From a virus (lineage: Duplodnaviria; Caudoviricetes), in IMG/VR virus record IMGVR_UViG_3300027969_004220, positions 32,001 to 96,000 of that record: a stretch of 64,000 nt of DNA. One strand, written 5' to 3'. Of the stretch, positions 6,807 through 36,771 are shown in pieces; position 1 is the first letter of the stretch, and every line of letters starts with the position of its first letter. A program made the translations under genes and the position numbers. The notes beneath the pieces are model-generated. The model made no database searches and was not told the origin of the DNA. It saw only the letters and a program-made list of their open reading frames with translations.

Positions 6807-6934
6807 AACTTTTTATTTATTTTATAAGGTATATATAAAAAATTGTCACTATATTTGTACTCAGAAAGAAAAAAAGTTCAAAAATATGAAAAGGAAGAAA
6901 AACTTTTTAATATATAGAACTATAAAACATATAT

Positions 6935-7005
6935 CGCGTTAAAGTGTAAAGGTTGCATGAGACTCTCATAAGGTCTACGGGGTGGTTCGAATCCACGATA
7001 CGCTA
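6935..7005 (+). tRNA. tRNA-Met(CAT)-like, degenerate acceptor stem
   Basis: Anticodon arm AGACT-CTCATAA-GGTCT, T-arm GTGG-TTCGAAT-CCAC; three acceptor mismatches. Confidence 0.55.
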
Positions 7006-7051
7006 CAAAAGAGATAGATAACGATTTAGATACAAGTCTCAAAGAATATAT

Positions 7052-7124
7052 CGCGGGATAGAGCAGTAGGCAGCTCGTGTGGCTCATAACCATAAGGTCG
7101 GAGGTTCGAGTCCTTCTCCCGCTA
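7052..7124 (+). tRNA. tRNA-fMet(CAT)
   Basis: CGCGGGA...TCCCGCTA with unpaired C1, loop CTCATAA, GGTTCGAGTCC. Confidence 0.9.
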
Positions 7125-7152
7125 CTAAAAGAATAAAAAAAGTTAAAAAAGA

Positions 7153-7221: not shown

Positions 7222-7323
7222 ATGACAACAATTACTAACATAACAATAGCTATCGAAGCCATAGGCGGGTATGAAGCGGGGTATACAATACCATCGGTCA
7301 GAAGCGTTATGTGTATAAAGTAA
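7222..7323 (+). CDS. Attenuator leader peptide 1 (Ile/Ala/Glu/Gly/Tyr sensor)
   Basis: MTTITNITIAIEAIGGYEAGYTIPSVRSVMCIK*; codons 9-21 are all I/A/E/G/Y; five ATA codons. Confidence 0.8.
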   Translation: MTTITNITIAIEAIGGYEAGYTIPSVRSVMCIK

Positions 7324-7727: not shown

Positions 7728-7734
7728 CAAAAAT

Positions 7735-7957
7735 TGGGTTAACTTCCGGTGTAGGAACCGGCGTCCTCAGGTAAGGGAGGAAGCTAACAAAGCTAAGGAA
7801 AATGGTGGTAAACAAACCACAAGGTGCGAGACCCCTTTAGCCCACAAAGTAGATATTTGAGTGTAAGCAAGTACAATATCAGTCGTTAGGTTCTTACAGA
7901 CAGTGAACGATGGTCCGAATGTCATTATTCGGTGATGGATACCAGGCAACTCCATCA
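7735..7957 (+). ncRNA. Unidentified structured RNA(s) inside tRNA array 1
   Basis: GC-rich; closing helix TGGGTTAA/TTAGCCCA (7735-7844) encloses several hairpins, followed by a further hairpin series. Confidence 0.5.
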
Positions 7958-7962
7958 TATAT

Positions 7963-8199: not shown

Positions 8200-8253
8200 C
8201 CGCAGACTTTTTTGACTTTTTTATTTTAATATATATAATAAAAAAGTCTGAAA

Positions 8254-8880
8254 ATGTCAAAAAATAAAATAAAGTATCACTTTTTGTATAAAACTACAAA
8301 TTTGATAAATAGTAAGTATTATTATGGAATGCATAGTACCTATAAACTAGATGATGGTTATTTAGGATCTGGTAAAATGTTAAGATACTCAATACGTAAA
8401 TATGGTAAAGAAAATTTTAACATCGAAATTATAGAATTTTTTCCTTCAAGAGAAGATTTAGTAAACGCTGAAATGAATTTGATTACAGAAGAAATGGTAG
8501 TTGATAACAAACTATGTATGAACCTTAAAAAAGGTGGTTTAGGTGGATTTACAAAAGAACAATCTCATAAAGGTGCATTAAGGATGTTAGATATAATATG
8601 GAGTGATAGTGATTTTATAACAAGACACAACGAAAGAAAAAGTAAGCTAATCAAAGAACTATATCTAAGTGGTAAAATAAAAAGATGTGACTGGACTGGT
8701 AGAAAACATAGTAAAGATACTATAGAGAAAATGACTTTATCTAAAAAAGGACAAGGATTAGGAGAATCTAATTCACAATTCGGAACTTGCTGGATAACAA
8801 AAGATGGAGAGAATAAAAAAATAACAAAAGAAAAATTAGAAGACTATTTGATGGATGGTTGGATAAATGGAAGAAAATAA
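8254..8880 (+). CDS. GIY-YIG (Seg-like) free-standing homing endonuclease with NUMOD3 motif
   Basis: FLYKTTNLINSKYYYGMH, YLGSG, GRKHSKDTIEKM; inserted between tRNAs. Confidence 0.85.
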   Translation: MSKNKIKYHFLYKTTNLINSKYYYGMHSTYKLDDGYLGSGKMLRYSIRKYGKENFNIEIIEFFPSREDLVNAEMNLITEEMVVDNKLCMNLKKGGLGGFTKEQSHKGALRMLDIIWSDSDFITRHNERKSKLIKELYLSGKIKRCDWTGRKHSKDTIEKMTLSKKGQGLGESNSQFGTCWITKDGENKKITKEKLEDYLMDGWINGRK

Positions 8881-8881
8881 T

Positions 8882-23993: not shown

Positions 23994-24647
23994 ATGGAAT
24001 TATTCATGTTTGATATAGAAACGGCCGGACAATATAAAGACTTTACAGAATTTGAAAAAAATGATGAACGTGGTTCAAACCTTTTTAAAGGCAAATACCA
24101 AAAAATGGGTTGGGAAGAAAAATACGGAAACATATACGAAGCTTATTTAGATAATGCAGGTATTGTACCAACTTATGGTAGAATAGTTTGTATCTCATTT
24201 GGTTACTTAGATAACGGTCAAGAAAGAATCTCAAGTTTCTACGGAGACGATGAAAAAGAAATTGTAGAGAAATTTAATAACCTACTTAAAAAGATTGAGA
24301 AGAAAGATTTTAATTTATCTGGATTTAGAATAGCTTATTTTGATATTCCTTGGGTAGCTCATAAGTTAGCTAAGTATGGTATTAAACCAGCTGATATAAT
24401 TACCACTTATAATAAGAAACCTTGGGAAATGAGAATCACTGATATGTCTGATGATTGGAAGTCAAAATTTGCTTGGGCATTCTCATTTGATGAGATGTGT
24501 TATGAGTTGGGAATTGAATCTCCAAAGGATAATATGAATGGTGGAGACGTACATGATGCTTACTGGGAAGGTAGAGTTGAAGAGGTAAAAATCTACTGTG
24601 AGAAAGACGTAAAAGCCTCAATTAAAGTATCTCAGGTTATTTATTAA
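23994..24647 (+). CDS. PolB-related DEDD 3'-5' exonuclease
   Basis: FDIET, GRIVCIS, FDIP, YCEKDV. Confidence 0.85.
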   Translation: MELFMFDIETAGQYKDFTEFEKNDERGSNLFKGKYQKMGWEEKYGNIYEAYLDNAGIVPTYGRIVCISFGYLDNGQERISSFYGDDEKEIVEKFNNLLKKIEKKDFNLSGFRIAYFDIPWVAHKLAKYGIKPADIITTYNKKPWEMRITDMSDDWKSKFAWAFSFDEMCYELGIESPKDNMNGGDVHDAYWEGRVEEVKIYCEKDVKASIKVSQVIY

Positions 24648-26249: not shown

Positions 26250-26251
26250 CA

Positions 26252-26518
26252 ATGAAAGAAATAAATTATATACAGTACACATCATATACATTATTATCAA
26301 GTGGTGGTGTATTTAAGGTAAATTCAGCAATGCCTTTACCGAATTTAGATAAACACTTGAATGAGAGTATAAACTTAATTATGTTTGTAGTTCATAATAT
26401 AAAGTGTAATGATAAAGAAGTAATGTTTTATAATAGAGATCTATTTAGATTGACATATGGATCAAAAGAATGTTCTGAAATGATTATGAAAATGAAACAT
26501 TCACATATATTAGAATAA
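26252..26518 (+). CDS. Hypothetical protein inside tRNA array 2
   Basis: 88 aa, exactly fills the gap between two tRNA-Leu genes. Confidence 0.5.
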
Positions 26519-26519
26519 T

Positions 26520-26802: not shown

Positions 26803-26892
26803 ATGAAAACAAATACTGTAAATATTAATGTGATTACGATTACGAATTGTGTGAATAGCACGACTTCGGGTAATGAGATATGTATGGTATAA
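26803..26892 (+). CDS. Attenuator leader peptide 3 (Asn/Ile/Val/Cys/Thr sensor)
   Basis: MKTNTVNINVITITNCVNSTTSGNEICMV*; codons 3-18 are all T/N/V/I/C. Confidence 0.8.
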   Translation: MKTNTVNINVITITNCVNSTTSGNEICMV

Positions 26893-27349: not shown

Positions 27350-27886
27350 ATGGAAAAAGATAAAATGATAGAACTAATCGAGTTAGGTTACTCACAAAGG
27401 AATCTTGCGGAAGAACTAAAAACATCACAATCTAATGTTAAATATTGGTTAAAAAAATTTGAAATAAGTACAAAATATAAAAAAAATAATATAGATAAAC
27501 ATATAATTGATGGTGGTAAAAATTGTCCTAAATGTAATGAGTTAAAAGATGTGGATGACTTTTATAAAAGAAGTAGTATAAATAGAAACGGAACCGCGGG
27601 TTATTGTAAAAAATGTAGTAATATTTATCATGGTGCTAGATTAAAGAAAGTTAAATTAAAAATGATTTTATATAAAGGTGGTAAATGTTGTGATTGTGAA
27701 CTAAACCATGAAAATACACACTATTGTGTTTTTGATTTTCATCACTTAGATCCAAATACTAAAGACCCAAACTTTAATAAAATTAAATATCAAAAATGGG
27801 AAAAAATTAAAGAAGAAATTGATAAATGTGTATTATTGTGTGCGAATTGTCACCGTTTAAGACACTCTGTTATCAGTGGATGGTAA
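27350..27886 (+). CDS. HNH homing endonuclease with N-terminal HTH and Zn-binding motifs
   Basis: CPKC..CKKC; CCDC..FDFHHLDP..KCVLLCANCHRLRH. Confidence 0.85.
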   Translation: MEKDKMIELIELGYSQRNLAEELKTSQSNVKYWLKKFEISTKYKKNNIDKHIIDGGKNCPKCNELKDVDDFYKRSSINRNGTAGYCKKCSNIYHGARLKKVKLKMILYKGGKCCDCELNHENTHYCVFDFHHLDPNTKDPNFNKIKYQKWEKIKEEIDKCVLLCANCHRLRHSVISGW

Positions 27887-32121: not shown

Positions 32122-32221
32122 AATTTATATATTAAAAAAATAATTCTATAATCTTTTGTTATATTAAATAATATGTGTATATTTGCATGTTATTAATTAT
32201 AATAATAAAAAAATCGCTAAA

Positions 32222-33445
32222 ATGAATATAACAAAAAAATTCTTACAACTAACATCTAGAACTTACCCTCACGGTACTGAGCAAGAACTTTTTCACTTGT
32301 TACCGAAAAGTTTGAAAGAGGATGAATTTGGTAACTTATTTATTAAAATAGGTGAAAGTGATGTTATGTTTACTTCACACTTAGATACCGCAACTAAAGC
32401 AAATACAGAAGTCGTTCACATTTTTGACGGAGATATTATCAAAACTGATGGTAAATCTATCTTAGGTGCCGATGATAAAGCTGGTGTAACAATTATGTTA
32501 AACATGATAGAAAAAAATATTCCAGGTTTATATTACTTTTTCTTAGGAGAAGAAGTAGGTTGTATTGGTTCGAGAAAAGTTGCAGACGTACAAAAAGTAG
32601 AGAAAATTCCAGGTATCAACAAAGTAATTTCTTTTGACCGTAGAAGTACTGATTCTATCATTACATTTCAAAGTTCAAAAAGATGTTGTTCAGATACATT
32701 TGGTGAAGCTCTTGCAAAAGCATTTAATGATGTTGAAGAAACATTCTCATATAAATTAGACAAAAATGGTGTTTTAACTGACTCTATACAATTTATTAGT
32801 ATTTATCCAGAATGTACAAACATTTCTGTTGGTTATTACTCTGAACACACTTTCTCTGAAAGACAAGATATTGGTCACTTAACTAAATTAGCGGCAGCTT
32901 GTTTAAAAGTTGACTGGTCTTCTTTACCAGTAGAAAGAGATCCTTCAAAAGTTGAGTACGATTACTCTTGGGGTGGTTATGGTTACGGTGATGGTGATTG
33001 GGGTGCTTGGGGTGGTTCAAGATATGACACTGGTAACTATACCAATGCCTATGCTTCAACAAATGTGATGGATAACGATTATAGTTCTTCAAGAACTAGA
33101 CAACAAGGAGCTTACAGAGTGAAAACTGAAAAGTCTTATTTCTATGATGAATTGTTCCAATACTTATCTATGATTGAAACAAATGCCACAACTGGTAAAA
33201 TAGTTAAAGTAGAGTTGATTGAGGATAGAATTAAATATGAAGCTCAACTTATTACAAGATTGTTCAAAGATATTGAACTACACTATACTAAATTAGAATG
33301 GGATGGTTTCAAATGTACTGTATTCTATGAGTTAGAGCACAGAACTGAATGTGATAGAAATGATTTACTAGAATACTTACCAGACTTAGATTACCGTGGT
33401 ATTGAAATATTAGGTGATTATGACGATAGTGTCTATATGTGTTAA
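32222..33445 (+). CDS. M20/M28 family zinc peptidase
   Basis: SHLDT, LGADDKAG, GEEVG, FDRR, NISVGYYSEH. Confidence 0.85.
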   Translation: MNITKKFLQLTSRTYPHGTEQELFHLLPKSLKEDEFGNLFIKIGESDVMFTSHLDTATKANTEVVHIFDGDIIKTDGKSILGADDKAGVTIMLNMIEKNIPGLYYFFLGEEVGCIGSRKVADVQKVEKIPGINKVISFDRRSTDSIITFQSSKRCCSDTFGEALAKAFNDVEETFSYKLDKNGVLTDSIQFISIYPECTNISVGYYSEHTFSERQDIGHLTKLAAACLKVDWSSLPVERDPSKVEYDYSWGGYGYGDGDWGAWGGSRYDTGNYTNAYASTNVMDNDYSSSRTRQQGAYRVKTEKSYFYDELFQYLSMIETNATTGKIVKVELIEDRIKYEAQLITRLFKDIELHYTKLEWDGFKCTVFYELEHRTECDRNDLLEYLPDLDYRGIEILGDYDDSVYMC

Positions 33446-33474
33446 AAAAAGTCGAGAGAAATCTCGACTTTTTT
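33444..33474 (+). terminator. Intrinsic terminator
   Basis: AAAAAAGTCGAGA-GAAA-TCTCGACTTTTTT. Confidence 0.8.
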
Positions 33475-33522
33475 GTTTTCTTATAATTGTAATTTAATAT
33501 ATAAGAAAATTGATTACATTAA

Positions 33523-34740
33523 ATGACAAACATATTTGATAAGGAAGTATGGATTAAACTTCTACCTAAAAAACTTACTATTGTTGATAATAATGGTACT
33601 TACGAATTAGTATATTCTGATTGTTCAGTAAATGGTGTTTCTCATAAAGTAGAAATTATGTACTTTCACTCTACACCTAATAATCCTAATGATGTAAATA
33701 AAGATGGTGAACCAGATATGTTACAGTTTGATATACATATGGTTAAAACAAATGATGGCACCGAAGCAAATCCAGACAATCTTAAATTAAATATAGATGT
33801 TACTTACGGAGATGCAATGTTATCTCAATTTAGTATTTCAAAACCTGATCAGATTGAGGTCGGTCAATATAATGGATTTGGATCTAAATATGACAAAGAA
33901 ACATTTTTTGGATTTGAAGATGATTCAATAAAAGATTTAGTAGAGTTTTTTAATAGATTAGGATTTGAACTAACAGTAAAGGATTTTACTTTTATCGATA
34001 AATATCCTGATACATATACTTATACCGAATCAATTAAACTAATGCCTAGTTTTAATGGTGATGTTGTTTTAGTAGTAAATAATACAAAACCACAGGAAAA
34101 TAGATATTTAACAAATGTTACAAACTATTTAAAAGAAAGAGGTATTGATCATGTCATTGCTTCTAATGAAGAAGAAATTAAAAAGAATAATAATGACAAA
34201 GTAATTGGTGCAATTTCAACTGGATCTGAATATAGATTATCTAATCCAGAATCTGACAGTGAATTTTCTGCAAGTTCAGAAGCTCTAAAATCTTTACAAT
34301 GTCCTATATTAGGAATGTGTTATGGAATGCAACATATGGGTATTGAAAATGGTGCTAATTTAGCAACTTTGGATAAAGTTTATACTAACCATTCTACGTT
34401 AGATGATTATGATAAAGAACATCCTTTATTTAAAGATGTCGATTTATCAAATACTCAAGCAAGCTTTGATTTTAATGACTATTTAGAAGATTGTCCCCAG
34501 GGATTTAAAACAATTGCTAAATTAGGTGATAAAGTTGCCGGTATATCAAATGATGAAAAGAAACATTATGGTTTACTTTTTCATCCAGAAGATATAGAAG
34601 ATACACAAGGAATATTAGATAATTTTATAAATATGTGTAAGTCAGGAAGATCTAATAATGACGAACAAGGTATAGATCAATCTAAGAATGATATGAAATA
34701 CATACAAACTTACGAAAGTTTTAGAAAAAAAAGAAAATAA
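33523..34740 (+). CDS. Unknown N-terminal domain fused to a class I glutamine amidotransferase domain
   Basis: PILGMCYGMQ, FHPE; C-terminal MKYIQTYESF. Confidence 0.75.
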   Translation: MTNIFDKEVWIKLLPKKLTIVDNNGTYELVYSDCSVNGVSHKVEIMYFHSTPNNPNDVNKDGEPDMLQFDIHMVKTNDGTEANPDNLKLNIDVTYGDAMLSQFSISKPDQIEVGQYNGFGSKYDKETFFGFEDDSIKDLVEFFNRLGFELTVKDFTFIDKYPDTYTYTESIKLMPSFNGDVVLVVNNTKPQENRYLTNVTNYLKERGIDHVIASNEEEIKKNNNDKVIGAISTGSEYRLSNPESDSEFSASSEALKSLQCPILGMCYGMQHMGIENGANLATLDKVYTNHSTLDDYDKEHPLFKDVDLSNTQASFDFNDYLEDCPQGFKTIAKLGDKVAGISNDEKKHYGLLFHPEDIEDTQGILDNFINMCKSGRSNNDEQGIDQSKNDMKYIQTYESFRKKRK

Positions 34741-34996: not shown

Positions 34997-35260
34997 ATGG
35001 CTGAAGTTGATGATAAAATTGAAGGTTTGGAAGAATCTAAAATAAATGAATCTAGTATTGACTATGATGTATTAGATAAAATGGTTAAATTACCTTGTTA
35101 TAACAAACTAAGAGAAGATCTTAGAGGTGCTATACAAGAGTTTACATCATGTATATCTGATAGTTCATCAGAAATCGGATATGATGAAGGTGATACAGAC
35201 CATGATATGGCTTTTAATGCAGCAATACAACAAGCAATTGACGAAATAGTTGGTTGGTAG
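34997..35260 (+). CDS. Hypothetical acidic protein
   Basis: 87 aa. Confidence 0.65.
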   Translation: MAEVDDKIEGLEESKINESSIDYDVLDKMVKLPCYNKLREDLRGAIQEFTSCISDSSSEIGYDEGDTDHDMAFNAAIQQAIDEIVGW

Positions 35261-35308
35261 TTTGGATAAAAGAAAAATATTTGTATCTTTGTCAAAATAA
35301 TAGAAATA

Positions 35309-35434
35309 ATGGCTGGTAAAAAAGGACAGTTTGCTGTTTGTAAAGAATGGGCTAAACACTTGAGAAAGAAATACAAAAGAATCTTTTGGAGCTCAGAAAG
35401 AGCACTTTCCAAAAAAGAAATTAAAAAAATCTAA
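35309..35434 (+). CDS. Small basic protein (not in ORF track)
   Basis: MAGKKGQFAVCKEWAKHLRKKYKRIFWSSERALSKKEIKKI*, after TTTG-N19-TATCTTTG. Confidence 0.6.
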   Translation: MAGKKGQFAVCKEWAKHLRKKYKRIFWSSERALSKKEIKKI

Positions 35435-35440
35435 TAATAA

Positions 35441-35523
35441 TTAGGTAGATTGAAAACTTTATATTACTTTTGTAGTATAAAATCAAAGAAAAACAAAAAG
35501 GAACAATAAAAGTTTAATATATA
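35441..35523 (+). promoter_or_regulatory. Conserved dual-promoter module of attenuated array 4
   Basis: TTAG-N20-TACTTTTG ... AAACAAAAAG ... TAATATATA. Confidence 0.75.
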
Positions 35524-35528
35524 GTAAT

Positions 35529-35627
35529 ATGAAAAATGTAAATGTAAATATCGTAGTTATGCCGCAGCCGATGCAGGATCAGGATCGTTTCACGAACCAG
35601 ACTAACTATGTATTTATATCACATTAA
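35529..35627 (+). CDS. Attenuator leader peptide 4 (Met/Pro/Gln/Asp sensor)
   Basis: MKNVNVNIVVMPQPMQDQDRFTNQTNYVFISH*; nine consecutive M/P/Q/D codons. Confidence 0.85.
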   Translation: MKNVNVNIVVMPQPMQDQDRFTNQTNYVFISH

Positions 35628-35650
35628 GAAATTACGTGTATAAAAATTAC

Positions 35651-35685
35651 AAATCCGTTAGTCTTTGAGACTAACGGATTTTTTT
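35651..35685 (+). terminator. Attenuator terminator 4
   Basis: AAATCCGTTAGTCT-TTG-AGACTAACGGATTT plus T-run; leader AGACTAAC (35599-35606) is complementary to GTTAGTCT (35657-35664). Confidence 0.88.
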
Positions 35686-35704
35686 ATGGAATAAAATTAA
35701 ATAT

Positions 35705-35776
35705 TGGAGTATCGTATAATGGTAATTATTCAGGGTGTTGGCCCCTGCGATTTGGGTTCGAATCCTAATACTCTAA
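35705..35776 (+). tRNA. tRNA-Gln(TTG), G at position 33
   Basis: CAGGG-TGTTGGC-CCCTG. Confidence 0.75.
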
Positions 35777-35785
35777 CAAAATTAT

Positions 35786-35847
35786 GGGACCATGGTTGAA
35801 TGGTTTACAATGCCACCCTGTTGCGGGTTCGAATCCCGTTGATCCCG
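35786..35847 (+). pseudogene. tRNA-Asp-like with the 3' half of the anticodon arm deleted
   Basis: CCACCCTGT is followed directly by T-arm GCGGG-TTCGAAT-CCCGT. Confidence 0.55.
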
Positions 35848-35854
35848 CTAAAAT

Positions 35855-35927
35855 AGTTATATAGCTCAGTGGTTAGAGTGCTAGGTTGTCGCCCTAGAGG
35901 TCGCGGGTTCGATCCCCGTTATAACTG
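35855..35927 (+). tRNA. tRNA-Asp(GTC)
   Basis: CTAGG-TTGTCGC-CCTAG. Confidence 0.9.
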
Positions 35928-35999
35928 CAAATGTAATCCTTCAGTCAACAGTGAGGAGAATGAATACCCTAATGCTTGTGTAGGGAGGTTACATAAATT

Positions 36000-36072
36000 G
36001 GTTTATAGGTCAAATGGCTAAGATGTCCGGCTGTCGCCCGGTACGGAGAGGGTTCGAATCCCTCATAGACCG
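36000..36072 (+). tRNA. tRNA-Asp(GTC)
   Basis: CCGG-CTGTCGC-CCGG. Confidence 0.85.
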
Positions 36073-36081
36073 CTGCATGGT

Positions 36082-36130
36082 AGACCGTTACTAATTCATA
36101 GGGACAGAAAGTTGGTCTGCGTAGAATTAG
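36082..36130 (+). ncRNA. Repeated pseudoknot-like spacer RNA, copy 2
   Basis: GTAGACC/GGTCTGC crossed with CTAATTC/GAATTAG. Confidence 0.55.
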
Positions 36131-36135
36131 AATTA

Positions 36136-36208
36136 CTAGGTGTAGGAAAGTTGGTATTCCGCGTGCTTTGGGAGCACGAGATCGCAGGTTCGAGCCCTGT
36201 CACTTAGA
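36136..36208 (+). tRNA. tRNA-Pro(TGG)
   Basis: CGTGC-TTTGGGA-GCACG. Confidence 0.9.
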
Positions 36209-36212
36209 CTAA

Positions 36213-36287
36213 CGCGTAACGATCCACAGAGAGAGGTTACCCGCCTTGGACGCGGGGTTATTGCAGGTTCGAGTCCTGTTTACGCGA
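36213..36287 (+). tRNA. tRNA-Pro(TGG), divergent D-arm
   Basis: CCCGC-CTTGGAC-GCGGG. Confidence 0.75.
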
Positions 36288-36293
36288 CTAAAT

Positions 36294-36378
36294 AGCTACA
36301 GCGCATAATGGCTGGTGTGCCTGACTGTCACTCAGGTGTTGATTTTCAACGTAGCGGGTTCGATTCCCGTTGTAGCTG
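36294..36378 (+). tRNA. tRNA-Asp(GTC) with long variable arm
   Basis: CCTGA-CTGTCAC-TCAGG, variable stem GTTGA/TCAAC. Confidence 0.8.
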
Positions 36379-36384
36379 CAATAT

Positions 36385-36455
36385 TGGAATATGATGTAAC
36401 GGTAGCATCACATCTTTTGACGGTGTTTGTGGAGGTTCGAATCCTCCTATTCCAA
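36385..36455 (+). tRNA. tRNA-Gln(TTG)
   Basis: ACATC-TTTTGAC-GGTGT. Confidence 0.9.
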
Positions 36456-36465
36456 CAAATAAAAT

Positions 36466-36537
36466 GGCGTTGTAGCTCAGAGGCAGAGCGGTCGGTTCAT
36501 ATCCTTCAGGACGGGATCTCGGAATTCCCCAACGCTA
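36466..36537 (+). tRNA. tRNA-Met(CAT), weak anticodon stem and atypical T-loop
   Basis: GGCGTTG/CAACGCT, loop TTCATAT. Confidence 0.6.
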
Positions 36538-36546
36538 CTAAAATAA

Positions 36547-36571
36547 AAATCCTCTCAAATTGAGAGGATTT
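36547..36571. terminator. Terminator ending tRNA array 4
   Basis: AAATCCTCTCAA/TTGAGAGGATTT. Confidence 0.75.
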
Positions 36572-36576
36572 ATTTG

Positions 36577-36771
36577 TTAGTTTTCTAATACCTTATCGAT
36601 ATTAGCTTCTCTAACTTTAGCTTTTACAATACTTGGACTTTGCATATCCTCGTCTGTAATTCCTAATTGAGTTTTGATGATATTTAATAAATATCTTTCA
36701 TTCTCCCATCTGTAGTCTGGTGCTTCTGACATAGTCTCTGACATCATACCACCACTAAGATTCTTATTCAT
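36577..36771 (-). CDS. Small protein with C-terminal REANIDKVL tag
   Basis: 64 aa. Confidence 0.6.
   Translation of the reverse strand: MNKNLSGGMMSETMSEAPDYRWENERYLLNIIKTQLGITDEDMQSPSIVKAKVREANIDKVLEN

Follow-up and report, generated by a model that had tools for sequence, protein, structure and literature searches.

Putative leader-peptide transcription attenuators ahead of tRNA arrays in a phage contig and in related large phages

A short leader ORF, a terminator, and a tRNA array in direct succession

The DNA analyzed here, hereafter the window, comprises 64,000 nucleotides (nt) corresponding to bases 32001-96000 of a 105,621-nt virus record (IMG/VR IMGVR_UViG_3300027969_004220; Caudoviricetes). 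It is AT-rich DNA of a giant lake phage (G+C of ~29%) in which transfer RNA (tRNA) genes are arranged in blocks; 31 were called by ARAGORN, and 33 matches were obtained to the Rfam tRNA family. Ahead of one of these blocks lies a short leader open reading frame (ORF), MKNVNVNIVVMPQPMQDQDRFTNQTNYVFISH, of 32 codons with start and stop (35529-35627; positions are those of the window, + strand, unless marked as genome positions). It is followed by a terminator (35651-35681, with a T-run to 35685) that has 14 pairs, 5 of them G-C, and a 3-nt loop, and the last T of the run (35685) falls 19 nt before the start of a tRNA-Gln gene (35705). Because ORF, terminator, and tRNA are in direct succession, with 19 nt to the tRNA, there is no room for a promoter between them.

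The tRNA array behind the terminator spans 35705-36537, as delimited by ARAGORN together with Rfam tRNA matches and alignments. Its order is Gln(UUG), a tRNA-like gene without an anticodon arm, Asp, Asp, Pro, Pro, Asp, Gln, and a CAU tRNA-like gene; the seven Gln, Asp, and Pro genes were called by ARAGORN, and the two tRNA-like genes were added by Rfam only. The last of them (36466-36537; Rfam tRNA, 36 bits) has a UUCAUAU anticodon loop, two mismatched anticodon-stem pairs, and an odd T arm; orthologous arrays end in an ARAGORN-called Met(CAU). The other (35786-35847; 36.7 bits), which ARAGORN did not call, has its 17-nt anticodon arm replaced by 6 nt in the Rfam alignment, with acceptor, D, and T arms intact. 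A two-way terminator-like hairpin found by a terminator scan (36547-36571, no strand assigned) closes the array. Up to that hairpin, the genes downstream of the leader are tRNAs only, with no amino acid biosynthesis or synthetase gene among them.

Codons 11 to 19 of the leader, ATG CCG CAG CCG ATG CAG GAT CAG GAT (35559-35585), spell MPQPMQDQD and are hereafter called the sensor block. An original prediction, made by a model from the letters of this DNA, had taken the leader, the terminator, and the array for an attenuator, and all three are present where it placed them. It had also described the codon block as a GC-rich island in an AT-rich region, and 16 of its 27 bases (59%, counted by hand) are indeed G or C, versus a fraction of 0.329 for 35001-36000. 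Across the 105,621 nt of the contig, read in all six frames, MPQPMQDQD is the sole 9-residue run drawn from {M,P,Q,D}; simple arithmetic with a background frequency of 0.14 gives an expectation of ~0.004 such runs. The further assertion that the block names exactly the four amino acids of the array stands for Gln, Asp, and Pro, and stands for Met only via the weak tRNA-like gene at 36466-36537, although the inclusion of Met gains support from relatives (see below).

Six differently addressed units in one contig

The arrangement is not confined to this locus. Six units of short ORF, terminator, and tRNA block were identified in the contig, starting at genome positions 22382, 24177, 39222, 57627, 58803, and 67529, two of them outside the window. 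The unit at genome 24177 encodes ...SSSSSSRSS... (TCG TCA AGT TCG TCT AGT CGC TCA AGT) before Arg(ACG), two Ser(UGA), Ser(GGA), and Ser(GCU), and that at genome 22382 encodes ...SFSKSFKWFSHKF... before Lys, Trp, His, and Phe tRNAs. Within the window, the unit at 7222 carries ...IAIEAIGGYEAGY..., with ATA codons, before Tyr, Glu, Ile(UAU), Gly, and Ala, and the unit at 26803 carries TNTVNINVITITNCVN before Asn, Ile(GAU), Val, Cys, and Thr. The match extended to codon families: the Arg codon was CGC or CGT where tRNA-Arg(ACG) is next and AGA where tRNA-Arg(UCU) is next, and the Ile codon was ATA ahead of tRNA-Ile(UAU) and ATT ahead of tRNA-Ile(GAU).

Enrichment of each whole ORF for codons of its own array gave binomial P values, for the six units in order, of 7e-3, 2e-5, 5e-3, 1e-2, 1e-7, and 3.6e-2, and the true assignment of leaders to arrays was the best of all 720 permutations. 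Each leader also holds the contig-wide longest run of its own amino acid set: 9 residues for R/S, 16 for N/I/V/C/T, and at least 12, the longest length tested, for both Y/E/I/G/A and K/F/H/W/S. The Gln/Asp/Pro/Met unit had been singled out beforehand as the cleanest case. That description fits its codon block, which is the cleanest of the six; it does not fit the whole-ORF enrichment, the weakest of the six (binomial P of 0.036, or 0.0097 with Met counted), nor the antiterminator duplex discussed below, which is modest at -10.3 kcal/mol.

Conservation of the codon set in homologous leaders

Homologues of the Gln/Asp/Pro/Met unit (E type) were collected with a pattern that fixes only GATCAGGATC (DQD) and CTAACT...TTTA (region 2, below). 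It retrieved 7 IMG/VR stretches and 61 metagenome stretches; together with the loci found earlier, the set comprised 66 loci, 58 distinct unit sequences, and 48 distinct peptides, in all of which the reading frame is kept. In all 48 peptides, the ten residues preceding DQD included Pro and Gln codons, at least one of each (means of 1.92 and 2.35), which the pattern does not require. Variation was synonymous, with Pro as CCG, CCT, CCA, or CCC and Gln as CAA or CAG, and P, Q, and D were kept.

A tRNA, likewise not demanded by the pattern, was called within 500 nt for 41 of the 48 peptides. The 190 tRNAs called behind E-type leaders comprised 73 Asp, 61 Gln, 46 Pro, 4 Met, 4 undetermined, 1 Leu, and 1 Tyr, so that Asp, Gln, and Pro account for 180 of the 190. 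The presence of Met in the leader likewise went with Met in the array: among distinct peptides with arrays of at least 6 called tRNAs, Met(CAU) was called in 4 of the 6 arrays behind leaders with Met before DQD versus 0 of the 12 behind leaders without it (one-sided Fisher test, ~0.005 by simple arithmetic, a value that overstates independence because the rows are related).

Predicted, mutually exclusive RNA helices

The leader RNA was predicted to fold with -43.6 kcal/mol (z = -4.56), and four regions that could form alternative helices were delimited. Region 1 (35544-35559), the 5′ strand of helix 1:2 in an RNAalifold consensus of 7 sequences, consists of the preamble codons ending in GTTA. 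In region 2 (35599-35617), AGACTAAC (35599-35606) can pair with the 5′ arm of the terminator and TAAC..GTATTTAT (35603-35617) with region 1. Region 3 (35651-35664) is the terminator 5′ arm, AAATCCGTTAGTCT, which contains GTTAGTCT at 35657-35664, and region 4 (35668-35685) is the 3′ arm, AGACTAACGGATTT, plus the T-run, with compensatory changes in the helix. As had been claimed, AGACTAAC starts 13 nt after the last GAT, is identical to part of the terminator 3′ arm (35668-35675), and is complementary to GTTAGTCT. Since TAAC is used both for pairing with region 1 and, within AGACTAAC, for pairing with the 5′ arm, the helices 1:2, 2:3, and 3:4 would be mutually exclusive, as in trp.

Two of the three helices showed covariation. 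In the terminator helix 3:4, 92.3% of cells were paired across 7 E-type sequences and 3 pairs had compensatory changes, a covariation score that was reached by 0 of 500 shuffles; across 56 sequences, 26 doubly changed cells were counted versus 7.2 expected from shuffles, with the inner pairs misaligned in that alignment. Helix 1:2, as placed by RNAalifold, joins the preamble (35544-35559) to 35603-35617 and thereby encloses the sensor block. It was paired in 95.5% of cells in the 7 sequences and in 87.6% in the 56, versus 29.5 to 47.7% when slid; in the larger set one pair alternated between UA (25 sequences) and CG (19), and the covariation score was not reached in any of 500 shuffles. The conservation of the preamble (..NVNI..) and of the tail (..NYVF..) is attributable to this helix and thus to the RNA rather than to a protein.

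The antiterminator helix 2:3 is an 8-base-pair duplex of -10.3 kcal/mol, a value reached by 4.35% of random contig segments (empirical p of ~0.04). In E-type relatives, 83.1% of its cells were paired, versus 7.5 to 47.5% when slid. Of 56 aligned E-type units, 52 retained GTTAGTC, a sequence not demanded by the search pattern, in the terminator 5′ arm. For four units, a region 1 that lies within the sensor codons was the predicted pairing partner of region 2. An equilibrium model in which a ribosome masks part of the RNA gave a clear switch for units A, C, and D, in which a ribosome on region 2 abolishes the antiterminator (0.00 to 0.10).

Units in related phages

Another pattern, combining a shared upstream motif with the leader start, retrieved 40 IMG/VR stretches, 13 of them with tRNAs and most of those with the same units; tRNA clusters were also compared in ten related virus records (14 to 276 kilobases [kb]; 4 to 47% complete by CheckV). 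A detector that requires a terminator no more than 35 nt from a tRNA and an upstream ATG ORF yielded 32 distinct units, with medians of 32 codons for the ORF, 25 nt from stop codon to stem, and 17 nt from stem to tRNA. All of these units keep the ATG, one reading frame, and a stop codon.

Leader composition tracked the array in these genomes as well. Poly-Gln leaders (MTT.TQYQQQQ...) stand before separate Gln-only blocks, and at locus L002, where Ile, Asn, Arg, Leu, Val, Thr, and Met tRNAs are merged into one block, the leader is rich in those residues and has three internal Met. In a 276-kb relative, a cluster of Gln/Pro/Thr/Arg(ACG)/Val/Ile/Cys/Leu tRNAs is preceded by the leader TTIKNTILNIIQTVCRQTP, with CGC for Arg. 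The 634-kb huge phage LR745206.1 in GenBank has MKTINVNIAPVNPQPQDQDPM... before Pro, four Asp, and Pro, and a second unit in which three Gln tRNAs follow MTTTQQIQQQQINQTD. Between homologous leaders, changes in the sensor blocks were synonymous by 5 to 0 in the F type (Tyr/Glu/Ile/Gly/Ala) and by 3 to 0 in the B type (Ser/Arg), and other sensor-block changes stayed within the amino acid set (N to T and V to I in the D type). The leader tails, by comparison, change nonsynonymously. This pattern supports the view that, in sensor blocks, codons are what selection would be acting on.

Terminators differ by unit type, and the upstream complement differs with them (AGTTCGG, CGGGTTTT, TTCGGGT, AGACTAAC, TCTGAGGG, and others). 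Complementarity of regions 2 and 3 had p ≤ 0.05 in 15 of the 32 units, versus ~1.6 expected by chance. As judged from these comparisons, the putative system occurs widely across a clade of large phages from freshwater, marine, and sludge sources.

A proposed attenuation mechanism

The observed layout, the match of codons to tRNAs, its replication in six units, and the conservation and covariation in relatives together point to a trp-type leader-peptide transcription attenuator gating a phage tRNA operon, a reading to which we assign a probability of roughly 0.8. The original prediction had read the locus as an attenuator, and, as judged by sequence and comparison, the sequence-level predictions of that reading that could be tested held true, with mixed results for the antiterminator helix 2:3. 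That the leader is translated is postulated in what follows, as are the polarity of the switch and the physiological signal that sets it off.

Transcription would start upstream of 35529, and a ribosome would translate the 32-codon leader while RNA polymerase approaches the terminator (35651-35685). With charged Pro, Gln, Met, and Asp tRNAs plentiful, the ribosome would clear the MPQPMQDQD block; region 2 would then be covered by the ribosome and subsequently captured by region 1, the 3:4 terminator would form, and transcription would stop 19 nt before tRNA-Gln. With slow decoding, the ribosome would instead stall on the block and mask region 1, region 2 (AGACTAAC) would be free to pair with the 5′ arm (GTTAGTCT) and block the terminator, and polymerase would read through into the Gln/Asp/Pro/Met tRNA genes. 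The phage would thus probably make the matching tRNAs only when ribosomes read these codons slowly, and because the tRNA product relieves the stall, the circuit would act as negative feedback on decoding capacity.

Leaders also carry residues of blocks that lie further downstream behind attenuators of their own: N, I, T, V, and C are found in the Leu/Arg leader, Ser in the Lys/Phe/His/Trp leader, and, where Gln tRNAs form a block of their own, Gln in the Pro/Asp leader. Upstream leaders may in this way poll the needs of the blocks behind them (nested polling), with the caveat that some of these residues come from the shared preamble. A tentative extension, possible but in our judgment doubtful, is that the six differently addressed attenuators provide on-demand tRNA replacement, each reporting the loss of one host tRNA set and releasing the matching block while upstream leaders poll those behind. 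If so, the triggers would be host anticodon nucleases, phage-induced decay of host tRNAs, or codon mismatch in a new host, and phage tRNA arrays would be inducible, self-limiting counterdefense modules rather than constitutive supplements to codon usage.

Points against attenuation and alternative explanations

Several observations weigh against the attenuator, some of them touching the antiterminator. Helix 2:3 is invariant in sequence within the E-type family and shows no compensatory change there; 352 of 500 shuffles reach its score, and its CTAAC part was fixed by the E-type search pattern itself. In the ribosome-mask model the E unit gave a small swing, its 5′ arm being paired upstream at 0.64 with a ribosome early in the ORF, at 0.34 to 0.45 with a ribosome later, and at 0.45 with none. 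Region 2 lies 18 nt before the stop codon, which makes its masking by a terminating ribosome marginal, and termination must therefore rely on helix 1:2. The 2:3 duplex test failed in 17 of the 32 units, among them every B-type, F-type, and poly-Gln unit as well as L009, L033, L055, and L045 of the E type; for the B, F, and poly-Gln units, no better antiterminator was found. L045 (virus record G002) has another terminator stem, with GTTAGT in the loop, and has lost the 2:3 complementarity (p = 0.92); its preamble is broken (ATG AAA ATG TGA), and its ORF starts at the Met of MPQPMQDQD.

Other points concern the leader as a whole, its occurrence, and its transcripts. The fraction of whole-ORF codons decodable by the own array is 8/31 for E, versus a mean of 0.20 with unrelated arrays, a noisy measure, weak for this type, because loci are truncated and ARAGORN misses odd tRNAs, for which reason the block and set statistics were relied on instead. 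The N/V/I preamble that leaders share resembles the D-type sensor. In the 735-kb genome LR756501.1, the tRNA cluster (L062: Met, Gln, Ile, Glu) had no leader/terminator unit, by the detector or by eye, and the system is consequently not universal among the largest phages; the stretch of LR756502.1 that was examined (L061, 16 kb) held no tRNA. Among assembled contigs from the RNA libraries X3, X6, X7, and X1, none spans 35652-35704, although such contigs cannot show RNA ends or levels. The RNA runs existed as assembled contigs only, each containing at most 0.32 of the sampled words. Over the leader, X6 covered 35316-35613 and X7 covered 35329-35564, contigs from which ends or levels are not readable and which may derive from DNA; one X3 contig covered 35705-35953 with 0 differences and began at the first base of tRNA-Gln. 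No conclusion is drawn from any of these contigs.

Four alternatives were weighed against this background. An attenuator could respond to amino acid starvation or to a general loss of coupling rather than to the supply of specific tRNAs, or its polarity could be reversed so that stalling leads to termination. A leader of this kind cannot in fact tell a missing amino acid from a missing tRNA, and in a truncated transcript without a ribosome the 5′ arm was still paired upstream at 0.45 to 0.72, so that the state without translation is not clearly "off." Under a general signal, however, a leader-array match down to codon families would have no obvious reason, and tRNA synthesis would not relieve amino acid starvation; as for polarity, a modeled ribosome on or before the sensor leaves region 2 free and one on region 2 abolishes the antiterminator (the 0.00 to 0.10 of units A, C, and D), which is the classical direction. 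We consider this family of explanations unlikely. A quite improbable alternative is an untranslated, RNA-only element whose codons would be read by the anticodons of free tRNAs in the manner of a T-box, or recognized by a binding protein, with the helices switching in the absence of a ribosome. Alternative helices are present, translation of the leader is presumed, and the leader ATG lacks a Shine-Dalgarno sequence at the usual spacing. Against it, no T-box or other known leader family matches 35440-35704 at E ≤ 1 (two matches far below their cut-offs are given below), every unit keeps its ATG, one frame, and a stop, sensor-block changes are synonymous or preserve the set, and up to 16 different consecutive codons would each need to be read separately.

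The conservation of the peptide preamble and tail might also suggest that the small ORF encodes a peptide with its own function, or with none, and that a constitutively leaky terminator merely sets the tRNA dose. That conservation is explained by helix 1:2, with its compensatory changes, and the tails change nonsynonymously; together with a leader-array match that ranks first among 720 permutations and is seen in each of the 48 homologous peptides, these results leave a leaky stop very improbable indeed. Short ORFs are common in this AT-rich genome, and a chance resemblance would on that account be conceivable, but it is contradicted by the replication within the contig and by the comparative counts and can be given next to no weight. 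The trp-type attenuator remains the reading that we prefer.

Relation to known systems

Multivalent leader attenuators are known from enterobacteria, in ilvGMEDA (Ile/Leu/Val) and thr (Thr/Ile), alongside trpL, hisL, leuL, and pheL. The ilvGMEDA and thr leaders are functionally the closest system to the phage units: they too combine a short ORF, in which regulatory codons for several amino acids are clustered, with a terminator before the regulated genes and with helices 1:2, 2:3, and 3:4 that exclude one another, as is predicted for the phage, and in both cases stalling is expected to give read-through, which for the phage unit is our conjecture. They differ in that the phage unit, carried by a phage, would control tRNA genes rather than biosynthetic enzymes, in that six differently addressed paralogous units occur in one phage genome, and in that region 2 of the phage lies inside the ORF, at least 18 nt before the stop. 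In the Escherichia coli pheST attenuator, a leader peptide governs a gene that belongs to the translation apparatus. As is postulated for the phage, attenuation there adjusts decoding supply rather than amino acid synthesis, but the product under control is a synthetase, a single amino acid is sensed, and the carrier is a cell. The T-box riboswitch, like the proposed unit, senses a specific tRNA state and switches between terminator and antiterminator. It does so without translation, by direct contact with the tRNA at a single specifier codon and at the T-box bulge, in contrast to the translated-looking ORF of many codons in the phage.

None of these families was recognized by homology. At gathering scores, Rfam returned tRNA matches only over the window and no leader family (Trp_leader, His_leader, Leu_leader, Thr_leader, Phe_leader, or others); at E ≤ 1, the leader region matched only tsr31 (E of 0.11) and L10_leader (E of 0.27), both far below their cut-offs. 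The T-box family (RF00230) was not among the 16 Rfam matches at E ≤ 1 in 35440-36600.

The nearest published inducible accessory tRNA array that we found is the long tRNA operon (trn) of Anabaena, which is induced under translational stress (PMC8421152, PMC10272220). It resembles the proposed phage system in that an array of accessory tRNAs stays silent until elongation is impaired, and differs from the phage attenuator in being controlled at its promoter by a protein repressor, TrcR (PMC10272220); in that article, the terms "leader peptide," "attenuat," and "terminator" occur 0 times. The main text of a paper on huge phages likewise contains "attenuat" and "leader" 0 times (PMC7162821). In the openly readable literature, which was the scope of the search, no account of leader-peptide control of tRNA genes was found. 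These comparisons support the view that a known kind of switch may here be applied to a new class of genes, those for tRNA.

Why large phages carry tens of tRNA genes is debated, with codon-usage matching, compensation for host tRNA decay, and escape from tRNA-cleaving defenses among the explanations. If the proposed attenuators operate, phage tRNA genes would be expressed on demand, by a switch that reads decoding speed codon by codon. Such a switch would explain the sorting of tRNAs by amino acid into separate blocks and would extend leader-peptide attenuation from amino acid supply to tRNA supply. Six or more natural, differently addressed sensors could also serve as compact reporters of the availability of single tRNAs, and the family is open to testing now in the public genome LR745206.1 and in dozens of freshwater, marine, and sludge metagenome contigs.

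Promoter candidates, host, and neighboring features

Two elements upstream of the leader might drive its transcription. A sigma-70-like scan matched TTGAAA-17-TAGTAT at 9 of 12 positions (35450-35478), a candidate promoter of host type and, on this match, a putative one. It includes TACTTTTG at 35465-35472, which fits TAnnTTTG, the Bacteroidota -7 consensus; the same candidate promoter block with TAnnTTTG also lies upstream of the other leaders of the contig and of E-type relatives. Going by that consensus, the host would be a member of the Bacteroidota. Such a host would also accord with the prediction, in a huge-phage study, that phages of >634 kb infect Bacteroidetes (PMC7162821). The second element, TTTAATATATA (35513-35523), lies 5 nt ahead of the leader ATG. 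It recurs 5 to 6 nt before 5 of the 6 leader ATGs and before many other ORFs of the contig, and may be a phage-specific promoter; transcripts starting just behind it would make the leader mRNAs nearly leaderless. Allowing at most one mismatch, TTTAATATATA was found at ~25 further places in the contig, where it precedes many start codons by a few to 30 nt.

Genes upstream of the unit (32183-34740) include one with a Peptidase_M28 domain (Pfam, E of 2.5e-5) and a second with a class I glutamine amidotransferase domain (Pfam, E of 1e-14). Elsewhere in the window, tRNA blocks are interrupted by protein-coding ORFs or long gaps (27350-27886, 26251-26519, and 8202-8881). The first of these is a 178-amino-acid Cys/His-rich ORF in a neighboring array, for which a guess of HNH endonuclease was dropped because no Pfam family matched at E ≤ 0.001.

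Among the E-type relatives, L115 combines the variant terminator of L045 with an intact preamble, and L088, L105, and L108 have a related terminator stem of the CATAAGT type. Two Met(CAU) genes of the window (6933-7125) lie directly behind a candidate promoter motif, without a leader. Between tRNA-Glu(CUC) and tRNA-Glu(UUC) is a 235-nt stretch (7729-7962) of 43.5% G+C in a 29% genome; it had no Rfam match at gathering score and could be a structured RNA. A Lys-like tRNA gene at genome 22564-22650 seems to carry a D-loop insert, and several other tRNAs here are 84 to 94 nt long. At genome 24002-24133 (7868 to 7999 nt before the window start) lies a tRNA with an insert of ~50 to 58 nt, which ARAGORN read, with introns allowed, as Met(CAU) with a 51-nt intron and, at a relaxed threshold, as Asn(GUU) at 24066-24133.

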